Shown: positions 2,847 to 60,659 of the stretch, piece after piece
Numbering within the stretch: position 1 is the stretch's first letter
How the letters are laid out: every line of letters begins with the position of its first letter
DNA from: Stegostoma tigrinum
Lineage: Eukaryota
Assembly (NCBI RefSeq): GCF_030684315.1
Contig: NC_081385.1
Coordinates: 6,126,341-6,190,340 of the forward strand
Reading direction: 5' to 3'
Length of the DNA stretch: 64,000 nt
Translations under genes and position numbers: made by a program
The notes under the pieces: generated by a model
The model's database searches: none
What the model was told of the DNA's origin: nothing
The model's input: only the letters and a program-made list of their open reading frames with translations

Positions 2847-4041
2847 AGATAGTAGGAACTGCAGATGCTGGAGAATCTGAGATAACCAGGTGTAGAGCTG
2901 GATGAGCACAGCAGACCAAACAGCATCAGAGGATCAGGAAGGCTGACAATTCAGGCCTATACCCTTCTTGAGTGGTGTTCCACAGGGCTCTGTCCTTGGG
3001 CCTCTACTGTTTGTAATTTTTACTAATGACTTGGATGAGGGGATTGAAGGATGGGTCAGCAAGTTTGCAGACGACAGGAAGGTTGGAGGTGTCATTGACA
3101 GTATAGAGGGCTGTTGTAGGCTGCAGCAGGACATTGACAGGATGCAGAGATGGGCTGAGAGGTGGCAGATGGAGTTCAACCTGGACAAATGCGAGGTGAT
3201 GCATTTTGGAAGGTCGAATTTGAAAGCTGAGTACAGGATTAAGGATAGGATTCTTGGCAGTGTGGAGGAACAGAGGGATCTTGGTGTCCAGATACATAGA
3301 TCCCTTAAAATGGCCACCCAAGTGGACAGGGTTGTTAAGAAAGCATATGGTGTTTTGGCTTTCATTAGCAGGGGGATTGAGTTTAAGAGTCGTGAGATCT
3401 TGTTGCAGCTCTATAAAACTTTGGTTAGACCGCACTTGGAATACTGCGTCCAGTTCTGGTCGCCCTATTACAGGAAAGATGTGGATGCTTTGGAGAGGGT
3501 TCAGAGGAGGTTCACAGGATGCTGCCTGGACTGGAGGGCTTATCTTATGAAGAGAGGTTGACTGAGCTCGGACTTTTTTCATTGGAGAAAAGGAGGAGGA
3601 GAGGGGACCTAATTGAGGTATACAAGATAATGAGAGGCATAGACAGAGTTGATAGCCAGAGACTATTTCCCAGGGCTAAAATGGCTAACACGAGGGGTCA
3701 TAGTTTTAAGCTGGTTGGAGGAAAGTATAGAGGGGATGTCAGAGGCAGGTTCTTTACACAGAGAGTTGTGAGAGCATGGAATGCGTTGCCAGCAGCAGTT
3801 GTGGAAGCAAGGTCATTGGGAACATTTAAGAGACTGCTGGACATGCATATGGTCACAGAAATTTGAGGGTGCATACATGAGGATCAATGGTCGGCACAAC
3901 ATCGTGGGCTGAAGGGCCTGTTCTGTGCTGTACTGTTCTATGTTCTATGTTCGAAGGGTCTAGGCCCAAAACATTAGCCTTCCTGCTCCTCTGATGCTAC
4001 TTGGCCTGCTGTGTTCATCCAGCTCTACACCTTGTTATCTC
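2847..4041. mobile_element. Penelope-like fold-back insertion, family A (arms about 2847-2967 and 3953-4041), with a CR1 in its centre
   Basis: Arms are reverse complements (about 85% identical) and match the termini of the element at 55956-59110. Flanking direct repeat CTTTCTCTGAGG at 2832-2843 and 4041-4052. Confidence 0.85.
2968..3952 (+). mobile_element. Young 5'-truncated CR1 LINE (HER1-like): RT C-terminal region and 3' UTR, one frameshift near 3519
   Basis: SGVPQGSVLGPLLF, FADD, VRPHLEYCVQFWSP, RGDLIEVYKIM; ORF2 stop at 3866; ends in a (TGTTCTA)n tail. Confidence 0.95.
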
Positions 4042-6856: not shown

Positions 6857-7074
6857 AAAGGTAAAGCTGCAGTAGTCTTGCCAGACCATAGGCCTGCAGT
6901 CTGTCTCTCTCATTAGAGCGGTGGTGGTCTAACTTGAGGGCCATCACTCCTCAAGTGAAGGGAGAGTTTGAGAAGCTGGGACCTTCATGATAACTTTGGC
7001 CAATGTAGGAATTGAACCCGGGCTGTTGGCATCACTCTGCATTGCAACCCAACCATCCAGGCAACTGAGCTAAC
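6857..7074 (-). mobile_element. tRNA-derived SINE, third family (also 51177-51368 + and 60283-60435 -)
   Basis: Minus strand starts GTTAGCTCAGTTG with B box GGTTCAATTCC. Core GACCCTCA.GTTA.ACCACCA...CTAATGAGA is shared among the three copies. Confidence 0.7.
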
Positions 7075-44573: not shown

Positions 44574-45962
44574 TAACTAAATTAGAGGCATGTTGAGAAT
44601 GAGACTTTGCACCAGAGGGCTGTAATAATCTGGAACTCACCACCCAAAAAATTGATTGAAACAAAAATCATATTTAAAGAAAGTTTGGACTGTCTCTTGA
44701 CTGTTGGAATTGACAGAGCAACAGACTAAAAGCTGGGAGGTGGGATAAGATGCGGGAGCTTATTTCTGTCCAAATGGTCAAGATGGGCTGAATGGCCTTC
44801 TGCTCCTTAAAGCTTTCTTTGCTTCTACCCTCTTTTGCTACATTTTTCTCTCAGTTTATGTGTGTTGACCAGAAAATGAGGTTTCTGGTGAGTAAGACAC
44901 AAATGATTTCTCTGGCTGTTGTCCCAATCTACATGCGGAGAATCATGCTTCAGTCTATAAGTGGACCTTCCCAAAGTGGACCCATATAAACGCTGTGGAA
45001 ACTGGAAATCTCTCAGAGATGTCCCTGATAGCACTACCTCCCAGTAGGAATTATTCCTGTGCTTTTAGGAGCAGCTGTCACTCTCACTGGCTAGTTAGTT
45101 TAATCTAGTTTGCTGAACACAAATTTACTGCCTATAAAATAAGCAGGGAATCTGAAGCAAAAGAGAGAATGATAGAGAAACTCAGCAGGTCTGGCAGTAT
45201 CCATTGAGATAGAAACAGAGTTAACATTTTGCGTCCAGAATGGCACTTCTTTAGAATGTTACACTACAAAAGCTGCCATCAAACAAACTTAAACATACTT
45301 GCCCATTTAATCGTATTCCTGGTTTAGCTAAACATGTCCCTGCAACAGACAACATTTCTCAAGATCTTTCCAATGGCATATGACAAAGGAAAATCTTGGG
45401 TTCCGAAACAGTGACTTAAGATTCTCAGCAAGCTCTCGGACTGCCCAGCATGATTACAAGTTAGCCATGAGAGATGTCCCAGTGTGGTTTAACCAGTTAT
45501 TGACTGAAGCTGATATGCAGGAGAGCCAATTGTTCTTGAGGGGCACAACCAAATCAAAAGGAAGGAGTTCAAGAGGACAGTAAGACCCTGCTGTAAAAGG
45601 CAACATGCGGCACAAGTCTGGTGCTACACAGCTGGTGTAAATCCCTGTATGAATTGAATTACATGCAGCAAGGTAGATGAAGTTGCATGCCATAGCGTCT
45701 CCGAGCTTGATATGATGGTGCTGAGGATTAGGGAAGGGAGAGGTAGGCAGTACATGTGAGTGGGGCAGTCAGGAATGAAGTCATGTCCATAACTGTGATG
45801 CCTCAGACTGATGGCCCAACTCTCCCGCGCAATCAGTGCACAATTCATGCCCTCCCCTCCCCATTCTGTAATCGGGTTACCTTACAAATTGTGTGTACCC
45901 GTTAGTGTTTTTATAGGCACGTCACATGTCTTTAAGCACTGATGCTAAAATCGGTGCAATCT

Positions 45963-46050
45963 TCAAGCCTTTGGTGGGGTTTTGAGGTCGGTTTTGGAAC
46001 CATAATGTCCACGTTCAGTGTTGGCACAGGAGTTTACCAGGCACTCCTTC
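45963..46050 (-). CDS. SCN4B: SCN4B last coding exon (KKECLVNSCANTERGHYGSKTDLKTPPKA-stop)
   Basis: Acceptor TCTCTCTAG; KECLV motif. Confidence 0.92.
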
Positions 46051-49000
46051 CTAGAGAGACGACAGCAAGCACCATGAGTAGAAGCACCTACCCACTGGTG
46101 ATACACAGTTAACACTTTGCTTACACAGGGACACAGGAAATGCAAATGCAACCAGTTAAAACACTTTGGTTCTGAATTTCCTCAGAGCTGTCATAACTGT
46201 GCCTTAGCCTGGTCGTAGCTTCACCTGAATGCTGGTAGGAAGTAATGCTTTCCCCAATCTTACAGGAAAAGTACAGCAATGCAGATGAAACAGCTCCCAG
46301 GAAATTCTGAGCCATTTTCAAGACAAAAAGGATTGCATTTTAATAATGTCTTTCAGGATGTCCCACTGTGCTTTACATTCACTGAAATACTTCTAAAAGT
46401 TAAGTTGCTGTTGTGATGTAGGAAAGATGGCAACACCTTCTATGCACAGAAAGTTCTCCCTGGTTACAATAATGATATCATCTTTTTTGTCACATACTGT
46501 TGACTGAGAGATAAATGTTGACCAGAAATCTCCAAAGAACACCCCTGCTCTTCTTCAAAATGGTGTCAGGGGATTTTTTGGGACCTACCCACGAAGTGGA
46601 CAGGACACTGGATTAACACCTCATCCGGAAGACAGCTCCGATGACAACACAGCACTCCCTCAGTACAGGTGTTGTGCTCAGGTCCCTGGAGCAAGACTTG
46701 AGCATATGCCCTCTCAGGCGTGTGTGCTGTCCATTGAGGCATGGGATAGAGGGAGGTTCAAGCAGAACAAAAAGAATGACAATGGAATAAATTTACAACA
46801 GGGATGGAATCATGACTGAGGTATTGGGTGAGAGAGGAGGTCAAAATTCAGATTGACGTGACTTTGGCACAGGAAGATCCCATCATCTGATGAACTATGG
46901 TTGCTTTTGTCAGACACAAAATGGTGTCCGATCAGTAAGCAGGTAAATTATTTACCACAGTATTAGACAAGCCTTAACATTCAAAGAGCATGATCAAAGT
47001 GATTGGGGGAAAGGATGGGGATGAGGGTGCAGGGTGGGGTGGGGTGGGGGTACGGAAGGAGGTGGGGGAGCACAGCAGAGGGTAAGAAAGGTTGCACCAG
47101 AACTAACTCTAACCCTATCACAGGAGCAGAAAATCCAAGACTGACACATTAATCTTAACAGACAAGGAACGTGTCAGCGAGTAATCAGAGCAAGGACTTT
47201 GTTCACAAGTCACAAATCCCTAATGATGGACTGGAAAAAACAACTTAAACACAACAATTGAGATGCTGCCTGATCAGGTAAGGCTTTTGTGCCTGGATTC
47301 TAAAATAATATGGCTCTCAATCTCAACAGGAAGTGTACCACCAATCCTCATTATTCTGTCTGATGGGTAAATACTTGCCAAGTATGGACTATAATTCAAC
47401 ATTAGATAGACGCTTCTACTAAAAAGCCTAAACCTCAGACATGAGTAATCTCTGTAGTGATCATATGAAGAAACTTATTATTCTTACTTGCATAGAATTA
47501 GTGAATTGCAGATTGTTCAGTCCTTGATATCTCTTGAGTAATCAGAGTTAAATTCTCTCTCTACATAGATTGATAGGATGGATGGAAGCTTTTCAGCACA
47601 TCACACCTGTGTTATTGCTAATTCTTACTGACTGAGCTACAGTTGAATGTTACTTTTTAATCAATGTAATGCAGAGCTACGACGATTAAATCATAGGCAC
47701 AAACTAGTGTGTGTTGCGAGGTATATTGGAGCATGTTACAGTTAATCAGCTAGTTCATCTTCTTATCCTACAAACTGACAGGTGCAAACTTTTGCTTTAA
47801 GATGCATTTTTAAAAATAATATAATGTTCCGCATATTTGCATCTTACTTACTTCTTCTTTCCAACTCGCTTAATTATAAACATTACAAGCTTTTTAATAA
47901 TAAATATTAGAATGATGAATCCTATCAACCCTCCGATTACAGACAGGATGATCACTGTCACTGTGTTGTCCACTTCTACCACTGTAATACAAAGGGAAAG
48001 TTTTTCAAATTAGTACAATGAAAATCACCAGTTAGACTCATCACTAAAGAACTAATATTTAGATTAGATTCCCTACAGTGTGGAAACAGGCTCTTCGGCC
48101 CAACAAGTCCACACCACCCCTTGAAGTATCCCACCCAAACCCATGCCCCTATAACCCACACACCCCTGAACACTACTGGCAATTTAGCATGGCCGATCCA
48201 CCTAGCCTGCACATCTTTGGGCTGTGGGAGAAAACCAGAGCTCCCGGAGGAAACCCACGCAGACACGGGGAGAATGTGCAAACTCTACATATAATACGAA
48301 GTGGGATACAGTGAATGTAAATAAGGGAACAATGGGGTACAAGCAGAAATATAAAGATACGCACAGGGATATAGAGAAACAGGTGAACATTGGATATACA
48401 AAAAGAAAGGTTATCAACAGATAGGGGAAATATTATTCCTCGACATCTGGTTTTATCAAAGTTAAAAAAGCAAATCTGAAACAGAAACCCAGTGTTTGTT
48501 TCAGCAGAGGTAGGACAGCCAATCCATTTGCAGGAGGCAGGCTGGTTGTTCACATATTTTCACAAAGTGTTCACTTTGAATATATTTCCTGAAATAACTC
48601 CCCAAAGGCCAGTACCCTGTCACCAAGTCACATTTTATTTACACACGGAGAGTCCTTCATACCGATCCAGCCAGCCCAGAGCAGGTTCCGAAAATGAACA
48701 GAACCTTTGACATTCATGTTTATATGTGTTAGCCAGGGCTCCCAGATTGGACCAGATTAACAGCCCCAAACAGGGAACTCATATTCGCTGAGGTCCATCT
48801 GGCAGACCTCATTATAAGCACTACAATTCCATTTTTAACAACCGTTTGCCAAGCTTCAGGTAACAAATGAAAAGAGCAGAGCCATGTAAATGAGCTAATG
48901 GACAACCCGTTCCCGACACAGTGGTAGCGTCCCTACCCCAGGACCAGGAGGCCCAGGTTCAAGTCTCATTTTGCTCTGTAAAATCTCTGAACAGGTCGAT

Positions 49001-52000
49001 TAGAAAAAAAAGGATGAATTAGTTAATTAATTAGTTAATTAGTTTAATTAGCCGTAAAGCACTGCTCGTGGGTCGTAAGGAACTGCAATCCTTCCACCAG
49101 GTTGAGAAAGTAGTCGTGAATCATGTCTTCATGATTGTGATCTGTCTGTTTATCCTTTCACAACTCCCTGGCAACCGGACCCCACTTGCCAACAGACCCA
49201 TCACTCATGCCCTCCCACTGATTGGATCTACCTGCTGTAAGGTCAGTTATAGCCTTGTGCTGTCTGTCCTCCTGTCTGATAGGCAGGGGGAGTCCTGTAA
49301 GTCTCAGCTCCCTGTTTCTCCTTCACTCCACATTTTGAAGATCCCCAAGGATAAGTTTGTGGACAGGAAAAGAGAGGGATAAGACACACAAAGGAGGGGA
49401 TAGAGTGACACAACAGGACAGACAGACATAGGGATAGAAATGTAAATGGAGACAAAGATAAGCAAGGGGATAAAGAGACAGATAGAGAGAGATGGGTTTA
49501 GAGATATAGAGAAGGAGGTGGAAATACACCAGCAGGAATAGAGAAGCACACACAGACAGTTAAAGACACAGGTATATAAAGAGACAAGAATGAACAGAGG
49601 CACCAGGCGAAGAGAGGGGTTTGGACTATGGGATATTGTGGCTATGCCGTGGGAAATAAAATTTTCACAAGTAACCTATATCTCTAAATGAATCCCTATT
49701 TGTAAATGTGTAACATTGTCAGATCTAATCAAAGCCTCTCAATAAAGTGGTATTTTAGAAACATTGTCACTCTGTATAAAGAGATAATGGGAACTGCAGA
49801 TGCTGGAGAATCCGAGATAACAAAGTGTGGAACTGGATGAACACAGCAGGCCAAGCAGCATCTTAGGAGCACAAAAGCTGACGTTTCGGGCCTAGACTCT
49901 TCATTAGAGAGGGGGATGGGGAGAGGGTTCTGGAATAAATAGGGAGAGAGGGGGCACTGCAACTCTTTTGTAATCTCCTCTCCTCTCCACCTATCTTCTC
50001 CTCTGTCCATCTTCGGTCCGCCTCCCCCTCTCTCCCTATTTATTTCAGAACCCTCTCCCCATCCCCCTCTCTGATGAAGGGTCTAGGCCCGAAACGTCAG
50101 CTTTTGTGTCCCTCTTCACTCAGTATAAAACCAGCTTAGCACTGAGAGACCTCACTACTTGTTTCTGAACACACTTTAATGAGATAGTTAAGAAGCATAA
50201 ACCAGAAATTGACAGAAGTATTTATGTGTAGATATTTGGCCGGGGGAGGGGGGGTATTAGTTTTTTGGATAATTCAGATGGAGTCCAGTTAATCATTCAC
50301 ATATGAATACAAATGATCCAGAAGTGGCTGTGTTAGGCAAACAGAATTTCACCCCATTGCATATTTACATAGATGTTTGGACCAAGGAGCCCCAGTGCAG
50401 TTAGTCACAGCAGGAAGAATTGCAGCTTGAAGTGTCACATGTTAAAACACAGGAGGGAGGAGCCCAAGGAGATCAAGTGGAACGTTAAGGTTAATGAGCA
50501 GCTGAGTAAATTCTTGGGGGAGGTCACTGAAGGAGTTAAACTATGAAGGTCCATTGTTCCAGATACTGGATGCCATTACAACTTCCCACTATAAAAAAGT
50601 GTGGGTTGAGCACAAAGCTACAAAATTATGATGCTGATTCTCTATTTGCATCCCAAGTTTTCTCGTAAGCACCAGTGTGTCTCAGGAGAAGGAGCGGAAT
50701 GGGAGGAATTGCATAGAGATTTAAAGCTCAAAAACAAGCAATTCAATCCACAGCACAGCCTCCTCCCACACTGCTTCAACTTCCTGGTCATTGTAACCTT
50801 CTGCCCATTTTGCTCATCCACTTACTCATCTGGTTTCCAATAAGTGTATAATATTGACCGACTGGTGGTGAGCTCTACTCCCTAGGAAAAGAGGTTTCTC
50901 TGGAAATTGCCTCAGAGCTAATGGTGACCCTCACATTTATAAGCCACCAACGCTTAGTTCAAGAGATGCATTAGCCTCTTGATTCATTTCCTGTGGGTTT
51001 TTGAAGTGACAAGTATAGAATCCATATTCCTCAAAATCCACGTCTGCAAACAAAAGGGAAATATTCTTCTCTTTAATATTCCCAATAAATGTAACTCTGT
51101 CATATTCCTCTGATGGAAAGATTTGGGGTCTCTTATCTTTCAGTTTAATATGAATAATCTGTGCAAGAACTTTCTCTAGCTCACTTGGCTGGATGCATGG
51201 ATTATGATGCAGGTTGATACCAACAGTGTGGGTGTAAAGGCCACATTGGCTGCGGTTATCCTGCCTTCTCAACCTTGCCCCTGGCCTGTGGTGTCGTGAC
51301 CCTCAGGTTAAACCACCACCAATTGTCTCTCTGTCTAATGAGAAACTGGGACTATGGTGACTTATAACTACGCTTGATGCAAGGACAAATGAGCAAGTGT
51401 GGTTATTGCCAAGAATCCATTCTGGTAGCTCCAACTAGCCAGGAATTTTAAATTGTAAATCTTGCATTGCAAAGTATCAAGAGAGAAAAAACAGAACACT
51501 CACGTTCACTGACAACACTTAGTTCAAGAGATGCATTAGCCTCTTTATTCATTTCCTGTGGGTTTTTGAAGTGACAAGTATAAAATCCATTGTCCTCAAA
51601 ATCCACGTCTGCAAGCAAAAGGGAAATATTCTTCTCTTTAATATTCCCAATAAATGTAACTCTGTCATACTCCTCTGATGGAAAGATTTGGGGTCTCTTA
51701 TCTTTCAGTTTAATATGAATAATCTGTGCAAGTAAAAAAAAATCAGAATTAGAAAAAACCTTTTGAGCGAAGAATGTTTTATTTCCCACCATTCACCTGC
51801 CACCACACCCAATCCTAATGACTAAAGTTGTTTGCAAACTCAGGATTTCCCAAAGCCTTCCAAAGCCAATTAAATGTGCTTCTGATCTTGTGATCACTGT
51901 TACATCAGAAATACAGCAACCAATGTGTTCACAGCAAGGTCCACCAATCAGCAAGGTGGTAACAATGAGATAACATGCTTTGGTGATGTTTGTTGAGATG

Positions 52001-54992
52001 TGGCCATAGGACATCAGAAATAACTCCCATTTTACTTTGGTGTAACATCTTACATCACAGCAATGAAGGGGTGGTACAGTGGTTAGCCAGGGACCCGGGG
52101 TTGATTCCACCCTTGAGTGACTGTCTGTGTGTTGCCTGTTCTCCCTGTGTCTGCATGGGTTTCCTCCAGGTGCTCCAGTTTCCTCCCACAGTCGAAAGAT
52201 GTGCAGGTCAGGTTGATTGGCCATGCTAAATTGCCTGTAGTGTGCAGGTCAGATGGGTTAGCCATGGGAAATGCAGGGTTACGGGGATAGGATGGGATGT
52301 TATTTGGACGGTCAGTGTAGACTAAATGGGCTGAATGGCCTGCTTCCATACTGTAAGGATTCTATTCTGTATGGAAAGTCCATATTCTCCTCTGCTTTTT
52401 CTATTAAAGGCTGTGGATGGCACTTGAGGGGGCAGCGGACAGAAAAGGTCACACTCACTGGCCACACAATTCATAGGATGAAGGGTGGTGGGGTGTTCTC
52501 CTTCTGTACACCCTTGTTGAGGTGCCCTCATGGTTACTAACCTGCCTCAGCAATGCCTAACTCTCTGAGGTGCAGTTGAGGCTACACAGTTGGTACAGCT
52601 CTCATTGAACTGGTGCCATTGAAAGCCCATAAACACAAAGTCAACCACCAAGGGACTCAATCTACCCTTAGGGAGTCCCTTTCGGTGCAGGTTAAGGACA
52701 GGCTTGAAGATCTTCATCCAACAACCCGCCACAGCTCCACCAAGCATGAGAGAACATTTCTGATCTGGGAAAATCCTGGTCTTTGTTGTTCTTTCCCCAC
52801 AGATAACTCCTCAGTGAAGGGGCGACCTCACTCAGTGACACTCACGAGGCTATCTGACTGCTGAGGTAAAGATAACCTACAGCCTACCCAACATCCATCA
52901 AAAGGCATGGAAGGAATGGGGAGGAGTGAAAGGGAAGGTGAGATCTTCAGCGAATTTTGAACAGATTGTCAGAAGCAATGACTTTGTATTAAAAAAGAAC
53001 AAACTGATTTTCAAATGTTCAAATAAAAATAAGGAGGGTTAACCAGATTATTAACCAAATTGTAGGGAGAACGTTCAGCATTCTTTGAGTTTTTAAAAGC
53101 AAATTTACTGTAACGTGGTTACAGTGACACGAAGTAAAATTGCTCCTAAATTAAAACCAATCCTTTCAGCAGTGATGTTATGAAATATTTCTTCACACTA
53201 TCAAGTTCAGAATTTTATTTCCACTAAAGGCAACTGATGCTTGATGAATTGCTAATTTTGACTATGAGATTGATAAATCTTTAGCTGAGTTATTGAGGAA
53301 TTTAGGGGAAAGGTAAGTATATGGAGTTATGTCACAGAGAAGCCCTAATCCCACTGACAGACACAACAAGCTCAGAGAGCTAGGGCAGAAATTGCTGCAA
53401 AAGCTCAGCAGGCCTGGCAGCATCTATGAAGAAAACAATCTGAGTTAATGTTTTGGGTCTGGGTCCCTTCCTCAAAACTAAGGGAGGGTCACCAGACCCA
53501 AAACGTTAACTCTGATTTTTTCTTTACAGATGCTGCCAGGCCTGCTGAGCTTTTCCAGCAATTTCTGTTTTGTTCCTGATTTACAGCATCCGCAGTTCTT
53601 TTGGTTTTTATCATTATCAGAGAGCTAAATGGCTTCCTCCTATCTTTGACTAGATTTATTTCTCTAATATTGATGTTTGTTTCAACTGAACTTGCTTATC
53701 TCAATTCAGATCTAAGCCTGTTGGAGAAACAGAAAAGACACAGTTTTCTTGTGGATAAAGTTTATTGACTACTCAGTGACATAACTCATGCCACACCCAG
53801 TACTCTCTGTTCTATCCTTTATAATTGCGTTGTCACTTAATTTTCAATTAACCACAGCCAGCACCTTAACTCTTGCTAGAAAGGCACACAAAATACAATT
53901 AGTCAGTGCATAGGCATCAATGGGATAGAGTGTGCAGTGAGCTTTGAATTAGCTAGCAACTGAGATGAGTCTCACATCCTTATCTCCACCAAGTTCAATC
54001 CCTCCTAATCACCTCCAAAACTGGCAAATGTGCTTTTCTCAGGTTGTTTATTGTATTGAGGAACCAGATAAAAGGCCTAGGATCACGTAGGCCAGGGAAC
54101 AATTACCCAAGGTGGAATGGGTTCAGTCATAAAGGTGGTAATAGCACAGGCCAGCCCCAGGCTTGAATTTCACCACAGCAGTTGAAGAAATTTGGATTCA
54201 ATAAAATCTGGAATAAACAGTTAGCCTAATGGTGATGATGTAGCCATTATCGTAAAAACCCTTCTGGTTGACCATTGTCCTTGAGGGAAGGAAATTTACC
54301 ACTCTGACTTACATGTGACTCCATACCCATAGCAATGTAGTTGACTCTTAACTGCCCTCTCGGCAATTGAGGATGGAAAATAACTGCTGGCCTAGCAAGC
54401 AACACCCAAATCCCAAAAATGTTCTTTTCTTTAATAAAAGGTGGAGGAGTGAAATGAGTCAGAAGTAAATAGTCAGTAACACCAAGCAGCAGATTTAAGA
54501 AAGGGAGATGTGGGAGGTAGTAAGGACATCCATAAGATACATTTGAGGAGTGGTCTTAATTTGAATACAGTGAGGATGTGGAGGGAAGGAGAGCAGGGTA
54601 GGAGTCGGACTCCAAAAGGCAGACTTGCAAATGAAATATGTGACACAGAGTTTGGGGCATGCAGTGTGGACCCCTCAACATGAGACTGAGGATATTGCTA
54701 AGAGCATCACCTCTAAGAAATACCCGCTAGAATTTGAGGGTGGAGGCACGTTTCTTGGTGGAGAATGGGAGTTGCTGGGGAGTGAAAAGGGAACATGGAT
54801 TTGCATGGCTCACTTTCGTTTCTTCACTTGTTTTGTTTTTCCGGAATGTCCACCAGAAGTCGGAGTTTTTGAAGTCCATGCAACTAGAGAAGGTACAGGG
54901 TAACTCGACATCAGAGCCATTCAGTGCCACAATCGTTGGCAATTTTCCAATGTGAACTTCTATAGCTTCATTATTTTGAAATACAACAAAAC
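45963..54992 (-). CDS. SCN4B: Sodium channel beta-4 subunit, 5' partial: complement(join(45963-46050,47852-47981,51504-51723,54814-54992)); exon 1 not located
   Basis: LNGSDVELPCTFSSC, NISLLL, DNGFYTCHFKNP, EVDNTVTVIILSVIGGLIG, KKLVMFIIK, KKECLV all align with human SCN4B. GT-AG sites and phases 1-0-1-2 are consistent. Confidence 0.95.
47852..47981 (-). CDS. SCN4B: SCN4B transmembrane exon
   Basis: LVEVDNTVTVIILSVIGGLIGFIILIFIIKKLVMFIIKRVGKK; ATTACAG and GTAAGT. Confidence 0.95.
48590..48825 (-). mobile_element. Probable solo LTR (236 bp) in SCN4B intron 3, same strand as the gene
   Basis: Minus strand begins TGTAGT and ends TTTCA, with CCAAT, TATAAA and AATAAA in LTR order. Flanks TTTCC and ATTCC are a possible 5-bp TSD with one mismatch. 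Confidence 0.6.
49360..49615. repeat. GA-rich low-complexity tract
   Basis: Degenerate (GA/GACA/GATA)n. Confidence 0.7.
49781..50115. mobile_element. Penelope-like fold-back insertion, family A, short
   Basis: Inverted arms matching the 55956 and 59110 termini; TSD TCACTC(T/A)GTATAAA at 49767-49780 and 50116-50129; hammerhead core at 50071-50098. Confidence 0.88.
50937..51167 (-). pseudogene. SCN4B: Duplicate of SCN4B exon 3 (pseudo-exon or alternative terminal exon)
   Basis: 50948-51167 matches 51513-51732 with 7 substitutions in 220 bp and no indels. Acceptor CTTGCACAG is kept, the donor is lost, and the frame ends VGGL-TAA. Confidence 0.9.
51504..51723 (-). CDS. SCN4B: SCN4B exon 3 (second half of the Ig V-set domain)
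   Basis: IIHIKLKDKRPQIF...NISLLLADVDFEDNGFYTCHFKNPQE...LELSVVSE; T-rich acceptor and GTGAGT donor. Confidence 0.95.
53383..53616. mobile_element. Family B Penelope-like fold-back insertion in an old CR1 tail
   Basis: Inverted arms about 85 bp; TSD TCAGAGAGCTA at 53372-53382 and 53617-53627. Confidence 0.85.
54814..54992 (-). CDS. SCN4B: SCN4B exon 2 (end of signal peptide and first half of the Ig domain)
   Basis: GFVVFQNNEAIEVHIGKLPTIVALNGSDVELPCTFSSCMDFKNSDFWWTFRKNKTSEETK; retains the second Cys of CTFSSC. Confidence 0.95.
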
Positions 54993-57437
54993 CTGCCGAG
55001 AAAGATAGTAGGTTAAAAAAAAATACATGACCCTTGATTAAGAGTTCAGATTTCTCTCGCTCTCTATATTCCCGCTGCTATCTAAAGGGATCCATGCCCT
55101 CACTGGGAGTTCCACAGCAGCCAGACTGGCGAATCTTCCAATCTTACCATTCCTCACCGGCATGCTCAGTGGCTGTTAGGAAGACTCATGGAAGTTACAG
55201 AAATTGAGGAGGATGGGATCATCCATCCGAGGTAAATCACTGACTTCCAGATGTATCCAAACTGTAAAATCAGGGGATGTCTTCAACACATGAGAAATGG
55301 CAATCCACAATGACTTTATTTGGCTGCAGTGTATTTACCTAACTACATATTGTGACAATAGGTTTTAGATCTTCATTTATGTCTATGTTACCTGGAAGAC
55401 ATAGCTATTCTATTATTCTACTGGACAGCCTCATATGTTGGTAAACTCATGATTATCCAAAGCTATTATTCCATAATTCACACTAATTCCCAACCAACCA
55501 TCATCCATCACTGATATAGGTCCTAGTCCTGCCATGGCTCACTTCTCCCTGTCTCTGGAATCTTCTCCAACCCCAAACCCCTCTGATATCTGTTCCTGTG
55601 TGTCCAGGGTAAGGATTATCATTATACAACTGTACAGGGTTTCTGTGTGTGCAGGGTAAGGGTTACGCAGTGTGTAACTGTATACTCACTAGTTATCAAA
55701 AACAAAGTCACACCCGCATTGCAAAAGAGCTTTAATTGATCAAATATGCTTCACAGCTAAACTAGTGCATTTGAAATGTGATTATTATTGTAATGTAGAA
55801 AATGGAGAGATCTACTTGCACACAGCAAGTTCACACAAGCAGTGGTGTTTATTGACCAATTAACTTACATAGCTACATAACAACGTAAAGGCTTCAGATC
55901 TAATAATTACCTGGAAAGCAGCACTTTTGACAGTGCCGAACTCTTTCACTCCTGTGATAATGGGAACTGCAGATGCTGGAGAATCTAAGATAATACAATG
56001 TGAGGCTGGATGAACACAGCAGGCCAAGCAGCATCTCAGGAGCACAAAAGCTGATGTTTCGGGCCTGGACCCTTCATCAGAGAGGGGGATAGGGTGAGGG
56101 TTCTGGAATAAATAGGGAGAGAGGGGGAGGTGGACCGAAGATGGAGAGAAAAGAAGATAGGTGGAGAGGAGAGTATAGGTGGGGAGGTAGGGAGGGGATA
56201 GGTCAGTCCAGGGAAGACGGACAGGTCAAGGAGGTGGGATGAGGTTAGTAGGTAGGGGATGGAGGTGCGGCTTGGGGTGGGAGGAAGGGATGGGTGAGAG
56301 GAAGAACAGGTTAGAGAGGCAGAGACAGGTTGGACTGGTTTTGGGATGCAGTGGGTGGAGTGGAGGAGCTGGGCTGGTTGTGTGGTGCAGTGGGAGGAGG
56401 GGACGAACTGGGCTGGTTTAGGGATGCAGTAGGGGAAGGGGAGATTTTGAAGCTGGTGAAGTCCACATTGATACCATTAGGCTGCAGGGTTCCCAGGCGG
56501 AATATGAGTTGCTGATCCTGCAACCTTCGGGTGGCATCATTGTGGCACTGCAGGAGGCCCATGATGGACATGTCATCTAAAGAATGGAAGGGGGAGTGGA
56601 AATGGTTTGCGACTGGGAGGTGCAGTAGTTTGTTGCGAACTGAGCGGAGGTGTTCTGCAAAGCGGTCTCCAAGCCTCCGCTTGGTTTCCCCAATGTAGAG
56701 GAAGCCACACCGGGTACAGTGGATGCAGTATACCACATTGGCAGATGTGCAGGTGAACCTCTGCTTAATGTGGAATGTCATCTTGGGGCCTGGGATAGGG
56801 GTGAGGGGGGAGGTGTGGGGGCAAGTGTGGCATTTCTTGCGGTTGCAGGGGAAGGTGCCGGTGTGGTGGGGTTGGAGGGCAGTGTGGAGCGAACAAGGGA
56901 GTCACGGAGAGAGCGGTCTCTCCGGAAAGCAGACAGGTGTGGGGATGGAAAAATGTCTTGGGTGGTGGGGTCGGATTGTAGATGGCGGAAGTGTTGGAGG
57001 ATGATGTGTTGTATCCAGAGGTTGGTGGGGTGGTGTGTGAGAACGAGGGGGATCCTCTTTGGCCGGTTGTGGCGGGGGCGGGGTGTGAGAGACGTGTTGC
57101 AGGAAATACGGGAGACGCGGTCGAGGGCATTCTCGATCACTGTGGGGGGAAAGTTGCGGTCCTTTAAGAATTTGTACATCTGGGATGTGCGGGAGTGGAA
57201 TGTCTTGTCATGGGAGCAGATGCTGCGGAGGCGGAGGAATTGGGAATAGGGGATGGAATTTTTGCAGGAGGGTGGGTGGGAGGAGGTGTATTCTAGGTAG
57301 CTGTGGGAGTCGGTGGGCTTGAAATGGATATCAGTTACAAGCTGGTTGCCTGAGATGGAGACTGAGAGGTCCAGGAAGATGAGGGATGTGCTGGAGATGG
57401 CCCAGGTGAACTGAAGGTTGGGGTGGAAGGTGTTGGG

Positions 57438-58793
57438 ACCCTCAACAACTTCTCTTTTGACTCCTCCCACTTCCTACAGACTAAGGGGGTGGCCATGGGC
57501 ACCCGCATGGGCCCCAGCTATGCCTGCCTCTTTGTAGGTTACGTGGAAGAGTCCCTCTTCCGCACCTACACAGGCCCCAAACCCCACCTCTTCCTCCGGT
57601 ACATTGATGACTGTATCGGCGCCGCCTCTTGCTCCCCAGAGGAGCTCGAACAGTTCATCCACTTCACCAACACCTTCCACCCCAACCTTCAGTTCACCTG
57701 GGCCATCTCCAGCACATCCCTCATCTTCCTGGACCTCTCAGTCTCCATCTCAGGCAACCAGCTTGTAACTGATATCCATTTCAAGCCCACCGACTCCCAC
57801 AGCTACCTAGAATACACCTCCTCCCACCCACCCTCCTGCAAAAATTCCATCCCCTATTCCCAATTCCTCCGCCTCCGCCGCATCTGCTCCCACGACAAGA
57901 CATTCCACTCCCGCACATCCCAGATGTCCAAATTCTTCAAGGACCGCAACTTTCCCCCCACAGTGATCGAGAATGCCCTCGACCGCGTCTCCCGTATTTC
58001 CCGCAACACGTCTCTCACACCCCGCCCCCGCCACAACCGGCCAAAGAGGATCCCCCTCGTTCTCACACACCACCCCACCAACCTCCGGATACAACGCATC
58101 ATCCTCCGACACTTCCGCCATCTACAATCCGACCCCACCACCCAAGACATTTTTCCATCCCCACCCCTGTCTGCTTTCCGGAGAGACCACTCTCTCCGTG
58201 ACTCCCTTGTTCGCTCCACACTGCTCTCCAACCCCACCACACCCGGCATCTTCCCCTGCAACCGCAGGAAATGCCACACTTGCCCCCACACCTCCCCCCT
58301 CACCCCTATCCCAGGCCCCAAGATGACATTCCACATTAAGCAGAGGTTCACCTGCACATCTGCCAATGTGGTATACTGCATCCACTGTACCCGGTGTGGC
58401 TTCCTCTACATTGGGGAAACCAAGCGGAGGCTTGGAGACCGCTTTGCAGAACACCTCCGCTAAGTTCGCAACAAACTACTGCACCTCCCAGTCGCAAACC
58501 ATTTCCACTCCCCCTTCCATTCTTTAGATGACATGTCCATCATGGGCCTCCTGCAGTGCCACAATGATGCCACCCGAAGGTTGCAGGAACAGCAACTCAT
58601 ATTCCGCCTGGGAACCCTGCAGCCTAATGGTATCAATGTGGACTTCACCAGCTTCAAAATCTCCCCTTCCCCTACTGCATCCCTAAACCAGCCCAGTTCG
58701 TCCCCTCCCCCCACTGCACCACACAACCAGCCCAGCTCCTCCACTCCACCCACTGCATCCCAAAACCAGTCCAACCTGTCTCCGCCTCCCTAA
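57438..58793 (+). pseudogene. 5'-truncated Penelope RT and GIY-YIG ORF with a premature TAA at 58461-58463
   Basis: ORFs 57423-58463 and 58533-58793 are in the same frame; the mirror arm has TCA at the stop position. Confidence 0.92.
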
Positions 58794-59015
58794 CCTGTTC
58801 TTCCTCTCACCCATCCCTTCCTCCCACCCCAAGCCGCACCCCCATCTACCTACTAACCTCATCCCACCTCCTTGACCTGTCCGTCTTCCCTGGACTGACC
58901 TATCCCCTCCCTACCTCCCCACCTATACTCTCTCCACCTATCTTCTTTACTCTCCATCTTCGGTCCGCCTCCCCCTCTCTCCCTATTTATTCCAGAACCC
59001 TCACCCCACCCCCCT

Positions 59016-59047
59016 CTCTGATGAAGGGTCTAGGCCCGAAACGTCAG
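59016..59047 (+). ncRNA. Minimal hammerhead-ribozyme motif in the Penelope terminal repeat, family A
   Basis: CT-CTGATGA-A-GGGT-CTAG-GCCC-GAAA-CG-TC-AG. Identical core at 50071-50098; mirror copies near 56051-56080 and 49878-49907 carry point changes. Confidence 0.7.
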
Positions 59048-60659
59048 CTTTTGTGCTCCTGAGATGCTGCTTGGCCTGCTGTGTTCATCCAGCCTCACAT
59101 TTTATTATCTTTCACTCCTGTACTGGGAGTACCAACCAGGATTTTTGCAGGCAGGTTCTGGAGTGAGATTATGAACCTGCAGCCTTCTGAATTTGAGGCA
59201 ATAGTGCTACCCACACAACCGTAATGCACAGCATTATCTGCTTGCAAATAAACACGGTTGTTGTTGAGCTCAACTGCTGGCATATTTCTGAAACTGACTT
59301 ATTTATTTCTGAGGATCAGACTGGACTTGGATTTGTTTGCATATACCCAATGCTCATTTATAGCATAGGGATCTGAAGGAGTCCTGATCGAGGGAATGGA
59401 ACAGAAAAGCACTTGATGATTTGACTCTCATTTCACTTCCAAGTGTTACATTTGCCCAAACTGCAAACATGGTTTCCTAGCCAGTACACAAAAAAGTTCC
59501 TAATGGCATTAGGTTAAGAGATCAGAGACAAAAGAGTTGTGAAAATCTGAACCTCCCTCTCCCAAAAATCTGCTGAATTTAGGGGAGAATTTTAAAACTG
59601 AGATTGAAAATTCTTTTTAAGTCAACGGTTGCATCATCAAGGCAGGTAAATGGATTATCTTATTGATCAGGAATGATCTGACTGAATGCTGGAACAGTTT
59701 CTAGGGGCTGAATGGCCTCTTCCTGTTTGTTTTATGTTCCTTCTTAGAAGTAGAAATACCAGTTGTGAGTCCCTGATCATCTGAGAATAGCTCCCCCCCC
59801 CAACATCTACCCATGGGTGATTTATAAGTCAGTCTCACCTTTATTCATTTTTATAGATTTCTGTCGGCTCTAACAATAAATTCACTGCCATTATGCCCGT
59901 GGAAATTGCTGACAAAGCCAAAATTCCCACATTTTTCTTGCTAATTTAATGCTTCCCTGCCAACTGAACCATTTTCACTGAGAGGGTCGTGGCTATGGCT
60001 GTATGTAAGGCATTTCTTACACAGCGAAAGAAAGAAAGCATTTGCATTTGTACCTATCATCATACAGCAATCCAAAATGCCTTACTAACACTAAAATACT
60101 CTTCTAAAATGTCGTCACTGTTATAATGTAGGAAACAGGCAGCCATTTGTGCACAGAAAGATCCCACAACCCTTACATGATGATGACCAGATAGCTCTGT
60201 GTTTTATTTCATAATATGGCTGAAAATAAGTAATAGCCAAGCACTCAGGTAAATTCTTTTGCTCCTTTCTTGGAAGGTAGAGGTAAAGTTACCATAGTCC
60301 CAGAGGACTTTCAGGCTGTTCTCTCATTAGAGAGAGATAACTGGTGGTTAGTTTAACCCGATGATCACCATGACCCAGGTGAGAGGTGAGGTTGAGAAGG
60401 CAGGTCCTTCATGGCAGCCTCAAGTAATGCAGGAATGTAATAATGTTGTGGGAATAGCATGGCCATTCTCATGGGATCATACTTTACAATGTCCCAGAAT
60501 TCACCATCACCAGCCATAGGTAAGTCCTGTCTCACTGATAGGTCAGACTTATCAGAAATGCTGGTACAATGGTGCACTGTTGGGCAGGAGTTGAGCTCGG
60601 AGTCATCAGACTCCATGAAGTCTCATGGTAACAAGGAAACCTTGTGCTGATTATGACCT

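Follow-up and report, generated by a model that had tools for sequence, protein, structure and literature searches.

Internal exon duplications are found in 7-17% of metazoan genes, and many of them are perhaps neutral (PMC3342872; also PMC2592719). In general, exon duplication is associated with mutually exclusive splicing (PMC3342872). At human junctions, insertions of hundreds of bases copied from nearby with short microhomology have been described, of the FoSTeS/MMBIR type (PMC5120786). Among the beta subunits, proteins without a transmembrane (TM) segment are known as well: the secreted beta-1B and the TM-less beta-2A of zebrafish are both tied to retention of intron 3 (PMC1971062), and BACE1 cleavage sets beta ectodomains free as well (PMC5924814). 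Beta-1B is named as the only secreted or spliced exception among mammalian beta subunits (PMC4877568, PMC4313373). Neither a secreted SCN4B splice form nor the duplication described below appears among the literature matches listed (titles and openings of abstracts, subscription papers excluded).

The window, the whole stretch of 64,000 nucleotides that we analysed, contains exons 2 to 5 of SCN4B, with exon 1 falling outside it. The encoded protein has a V-set Ig domain, one TM segment and a short tail, and it matches beta-4 better than beta-2; its whale shark counterpart, P0001, aligns to solved beta-4 at E 5e-54 and to beta-2 at 1e-23. Across exons 2-5, 198 of 202 residues match P0001 and four differ, two of the 59 in exon 2 and two of the 73 in working exon 3, which marks the host as a carpet shark closely related to the whale shark but distinct from it. 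Exons 3 and 4 have the same lengths as those of zebrafish beta-4.1, 220 and 130 nt (PMC1971062, Table 4). The first-pass annotation had taken the gene for SCN4B with its Ig exon duplicated, and the exon sizes and the P0001 match agree with that identification; its reading frames are also correct. Working exon 3 carries a strong acceptor and the donor AAC/GTGAGT (the slash marks the end of the exon). Read-through past this donor (51503-51447) adds 18 further codons and then a stop, and retention of intron 3, as in beta-1B, could yield a TM-less beta-4 without any duplicate.

For protein comparisons we used 65 homologues (16 chondrichthyan, 49 other), all of them hits at E 1e-30. Two mammalian beta-4 records of 200 aa in this material, P0064 and P0065, one of them a rabbit isoform X3, have a common internal deletion that starts directly behind the conserved Asp-Thr and extends to exon 4, losing the second Ig cysteine and keeping the TM segment, which suggests an alternative donor inside exon 3. 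Another record, the 357-aa bat protein P0016, is named beta subunit 2 and contains two Ig halves, the second of them beta-4-like with a beta-4 tail; it probably stems from an annotation that fuses or reads through the neighbouring genes SCN2B and SCN4B.

A repeat search of the window recovered a direct repeat of 220 nt with 97% identity and a start-to-start distance of 565 nt, in which the last bases of intron 2 and most of exon 3 recur within intron 3 (Table 1). Chance is excluded as the source of the similarity (blastn E 4e-101). The two segments differ by seven substitutions, at 51105, 51050, 51027, 51026, 51018, 50981 and 50952, three synonymous and four missense, and by no indels. The copy begins in phase 0, and its homology to exon 3 stops 9 nt short of the exon end. 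Its best protein matches are shark beta-4 subunits, with whale shark P0001 at 94%. The first-pass annotation had described a 220-bp copy at 565 bp spacing with exactly these counts of changes, a kept acceptor and phase 0, a missing donor and a frame reading VGGL-stop, all of which the repeat search and alignment reproduce (TAA 50942-50940). The range it gave for the duplication has to be narrowed: the 220-nt copy stands, but only 220 of the 565 nt are duplicated, and the 345-nt spacer is single copy.

Table 1. Features of the SCN4B locus and of the exon 3 duplicate, in window coordinates.
Feature	Position	Strand	Remarks
SCN4B exon 2	54814..54992	-	179 nt; V-set Ig domain, first half; ends in phase 0; tblastn of P0001
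Donor segment of the duplication	51513..51732	-	final 9 nt of intron 2 + initial 211 nt of exon 3
SCN4B exon 3, working copy	51504..51723	-	220 nt; Ig domain, second half; Pfam V-set 32.3 bits
Single-copy spacer	51168..51512	-	345 nt; exon 3 end, exon 3 donor, intron 3 start
Old SINE-like repeat	51177..51363	+	antisense to transcript; its head lies 10 nt off the upstream breakpoint of the copy
Duplicate	50948..51167	-	9-nt acceptor remnant + 211 nt of exon 3; 7 differences
TAA, frame of copy spliced behind exon 3	51145..51147	-	four codons into the copy; frame +1
In-frame TAA closing the copy's frame	50940..50942	-	VGGL-stop
Cryptic donor AAT/GTGAGG	50927..50937	-	exon would end at 50935, 5 nt beyond the stop; 7/9 consensus
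Cryptic donor TGA/GTAAGT	50818..50828	-	exon would end at 50826, 114 nt beyond the stop
Closest poly(A)-like hexamers following the copy	50039..50180	-	ATTAAA 50180, AATAAA 50044; motif match only
SCN4B exon 4	47852..47981	-	130 nt; transmembrane segment; 0/42 residues differ from P0001
SCN4B exon 5, coding part	45963..46050	-	cytoplasmic tail; 0/28 residues differ from P0001

The copy is an exon-homologous segment in the same gene and on the same strand, and most likely represents one more internal exon duplication of the known kind, with a near-identical exon copy in the adjacent intron. It differs from an internal tandem duplication in that it is not head-to-tail: 220 nt were inserted 345 nt away, and both splice signals were lost at birth. 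Its arrangement is consistent with a locally templated insertion, by template switch or break repair, that postdates the split from the whale shark: intron 3 would have received a copy of a nearby stretch next to an old antisense SINE, the copying having ended shortly before the T-tract on one side and shortly before the donor on the other. The trinucleotide GTT borders the insert on either side, in keeping with templated insertions of the FoSTeS/MMBIR type, although a 3-nt match is easily chance and the mechanism is putative.

Other origins fit the surroundings poorly. An old 565-nt tandem unit with a later deletion is rejected, given that the spacer and the post-copy sequence are unrelated, their similarity not being significant (134 of 300 shuffles score as high). 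A processed retrocopy is likewise rejected, the copy having 9 intronic bases and not the exon 2 junction. Recombination mediated by the SINE is unsupported: a 33-column post-copy match to the two paralogues was reached by 10/300 and 292/300 shuffles, in a set of five comparisons. The upstream flanks share a short off-register match that 6 of 300 shuffles equal, and we take it as chance. The repeat itself, which we take to be a SINE from its tRNA-like head, is 68-78% identical to window paralogues at 6920-7072 and 60322-60404. It does adjoin the upstream breakpoint, as had been noted, but the proposal that it sits in place of the pyrimidine tract is rejected on divergence: at 68-78% it is far more diverged than the copy (97%) and likely predates the duplication.

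The splice signals of the copy were scored with simple counts and U1 duplex energy. Its acceptor counts 9 pyrimidines in 22 positions, against 14-17 for the real acceptors of exons 2-5. The preceding 32 nt contain six AGs, and the AG-free zone spans 9 nt, compared with 34-53 nt at the real sites. Of 458 decoy AGs taken from introns 2-4, 21.6% are at least as good as the copy, against 0.4-1.5% that are as good as the acceptors of exons 3-5. Each of the four real acceptors has two or three yTnAy branch motifs within 70 nt, and the same interval at the copy has none. At the other end, the G/GTGGCT at 50948 matches the consensus at 4 of 9 positions, and 71% of 432 decoys do as well in Watson-Crick pairing with U1; it stays a possible donor, since its duplex energy (-4.3) resembles the value for the real exon 2 donor (-4.6). 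Beyond the stop there are two better donors. As strong as the one at 50935 are 13% of the 432 decoy GT sites; by duplex energy, 3.5% of decoys equal the one at 50826, compared with 2.1% and 2.3% for the real exon 3 and exon 4 donors. The first-pass annotation's caution about a weak acceptor is thus borne out, and its weak G/GTGGCT donor is indeed weak, with the qualification that better candidates exist at 50935 and 50826.

By simple counts, then, the splice signals of the copy are at background level, with polypyrimidine tract, branch motif and donor all absent. We consider it probable that the copy is a lineage-specific duplicate, predicted to be passed over in splicing, and that it is undergoing neutral decay as a pseudo-exon. 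Exon 3 would be spliced straight to exon 4 and normal membrane beta-4 would be made, while stray inclusion would end at a stop at least 135 nt before the final junction and be degraded. A copy that took both splice sites would add 220 nt to mRNA containing exon 3 and cause a frameshift, and the copies expected to persist are those that took neither working splice signal. The frameshift on inclusion of both exons, already pointed out in the earlier annotation, is found, with TAA after four codons. One feature counts against the pseudo-exon reading: both ends of the copy lie within 10 nt of exon ends, a striking fit. We infer that this closeness reflects ascertainment together with the survival of copies that are without splice signals.

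Low-level use as a poison exon is an unlikely alternative to such a skipped pseudo-exon. Exon 3 or exon 2 would join to 51158 and the transcript would leave at 50935 or 50826 to exon 4, so that nonsense-mediated decay (NMD) tunes the dose of beta-4. A stop more than 50-55 nt before the final junction leads to NMD; in silico, inclusion through 50935 or 50826 would leave 135 or 244 nt between the stop and the exon 4/5 junction. Because donors stronger than GTGGCT lie past the stop, any spliced inclusion of the copy would be a predicted NMD target. These usable-looking donors, together with the CAG and the exon's own enhancers, which the copy retains, speak for a poison exon. It would have to work with a decoy-level acceptor facing six competing upstream AGs and no branch motif, and the element is lineage-specific, with conserved flanks not in evidence.

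The first-pass annotation had raised a different possibility, a soluble beta-4 encoded through the copy, which we judge very unlikely. The copy would act as an alternative terminal exon, polyadenylated in intron 3, and would give rise to a secreted beta-4 Ig domain by one of two routes. Exon 2 could be joined to the copy, producing a mutant domain that ends in VGGL (route A), or exon 3 could be joined to it, producing the wild-type domain intact, followed by four residues and the stop at 51147 (route B); the latter, which was absent from the earlier annotation, is independent of the coding sequence of the copy. The idea is possible on paper, as the frames work for both routes. Homology extends to residue 159 of P0001 and the solved mouse/human ectodomain 5xaw_A aligns over 40-160, so the predicted secreted domain would be nearly whole. 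Poly(A)-like hexamers follow the copy, and there are precedents in beta-1B (PMC5924814) and in TM-less zebrafish beta-2A (PMC1971062), which the predicted product resembles as an Ig domain without a TM segment.

What weighs against secretion is, first, the machinery it requires: a decoy-grade acceptor without a branch motif would have to be used while both donors past the stop are ignored. The precedents also differ. Known TM-less beta forms, which were cloned from RNA, arise when intron 3 is retained and keep the original Ig sequence, whereas the route proposed here would be not intron retention but a duplicated exon with a changed Ig motif. No TM-less beta-4 occurs among the 65 homologues. 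A protein search with the copy returned four hits out of 22 candidates of at least 127 aa, the best at 94%, a weak result in a database clustered at 90%; it held no candidates at 39-126 aa, and absence of the isoform is not shown thereby. If a secreted form did exist, it would be a genetically encoded secreted beta-4, like beta-1B but born by exon duplication instead of intron retention, and a testable adhesion ligand or decoy.

The coding changes of the copy speak to route A in particular and to selection in general. Three are specific to the copy (P0001 numbering): L126F, D133E and N134Y. Position 133 is Asp in 65/65 homologues, position 126 is Leu or Ile in all 65, and Tyr at position 134 occurs in none. 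The changed Asp of the D-x-G-x-Y-x-C motif, a point of caution in the first-pass annotation, is therefore an invariant residue. In V-set domains this Asp is the partner of a conserved Arg and lends support to the Tyr corner, and Arg or Lys occupies the expected partner column in 65/65 homologues. Route A would thus carry altered Asp and core Leu residues, and it would also lose the last-strand Val (59/65). Pfam V-set scores 32.3 bits with the working exon and 24.3 with the copy, below the cut-off of 26; the predicted secreted product has no TM segment by either route, and its domain is intact by route B.

The summed profile cost of the three changes resembles that of random missense changes (P 0.35) and departs from that of orthologue differences (P 0.002), which reads as unconstrained change, with three caveats: Q149K, a change of the working exon itself, has an equally bad score (-3.98), the orthologue control takes P0001 as its reference and is hence lenient, and D133E and N134Y involve adjacent bases and may be one event. 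pN/pS between the copies is 0.32, with three of seven changes synonymous (P 0.14 under neutrality, the synonymous changes being unpolarised), a value with which mild constraint on the copy may be compatible. An open frame is expected by chance, the probability of no stop being 0.76-0.87 for 3-6 random changes, and is therefore not a sign of selection.

The comparison with other sharks also bears on whether the copy is real. An assembly artefact, with two exon 3 alleles or a chimeric read set in tandem, could be suspected in a window that has N runs and is not gap-free, but we regard it as highly improbable. The nearest N runs (293-599 and 700-845) are at the window start, ~50 kb off, and the repeat is limited to 220 nt. 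The copies differ at 4/70 residues, compared with 2/73 between working exon 3 and the whale shark, so their divergence exceeds the protein-level distance to another species, and all differences are substitutions. The copy keeps Gln149, which is Gln in P0001 and in 14 of 16 chondrichthyan proteins, while the Lys of the working exon (51546, exon 3 codon 60) is found in 0/65 homologues. By this comparison Q149K is a lineage-specific change of the working exon after the duplication, and the K>Q assigned to the copy at first had the wrong polarity. Unrelated flanks, together with the ancestral Gln retained in the copy, make an allelic or error artefact unlikely. Of the 9921 31-mers of 45100-55050, 188 (1.9%) depend on the copy; four sequencing runs of one study, possibly the source of the sequence, contain 0.94-0.95 of the sampled words of that stretch, a figure uninformative on the copy.

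A duplicate of this kind can also be placed in time. His140 is common to both copies where the whale shark and the epaulette shark have Tyr, and for this reason the duplication is likely younger than the split from the whale-shark line, although gene conversion could mimic the pattern. Whale and zebra shark differ by a dS of 0.061-0.111 over ~50 Myr (PMC13100897). Between the copies pS is 0.074 (3 of 40.7 sites), with 2-3 missense events on the copy's 169 sites. The duplication is perhaps 10-40 Myr old, roughly, if the distance between host and whale shark is near that between whale and zebra shark and bearing in mind the few changes. "Recent", as it was first described, holds in the sense of lineage-specific, but at shark rates the event is likely tens of Myr old.

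Mutually exclusive use with exon 3 through G/GTGGCT is extremely improbable. It would make a membrane beta-4 that is three residues shorter and carries four substitutions, and it can point to the general association of duplicated exons with such splicing, to a homologous neighbour with the same entry phase, to a retained frame into exon 4 (211 nt and 220 nt, same phase) and to the U1 duplex energy of the site; yet equal phase at both ends is reached only via this weak donor, a better one lies 13 nt on, the acceptor is weak, the Ig motif is damaged, and the 345-nt spacer offers no steric mechanism, with no branch motif near the exon 3 donor (the scan covered 70 nt from the acceptor). Where mutually exclusive exons both keep a working acceptor and donor, the copy has lost its authentic donor, pyrimidine tract and branch motif, and purifying selection is not evident.

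As a dead duplicate the copy would be ordinary, useful at most as a lineage marker and as a small example of why surviving copies are without splice signals. It is also a trap for gene annotation or primer design.

Several other repeats lie in the window. Intron 1 contains a young inverted pair at 55987-59111, with 1451-nt arms at 97.7% and a 230-nt gap, which to us looks like a Penelope-type element; an ORF within it (56311-56901) matches GIY-YIG weakly (E 6e-4, 20.5 bits, below the cut-off of 22.6). A short inverted fragment of the same family (91-94%) at 49783-50113 in intron 3 supplies the AATAAA at 50044. Intron 2 carries a small MITE-like hairpin element at 53386-53567, with 50-nt arms at 94%, and a reverse transcriptase fragment (RVT_1, E 1e-12) is found at 2947-3561.
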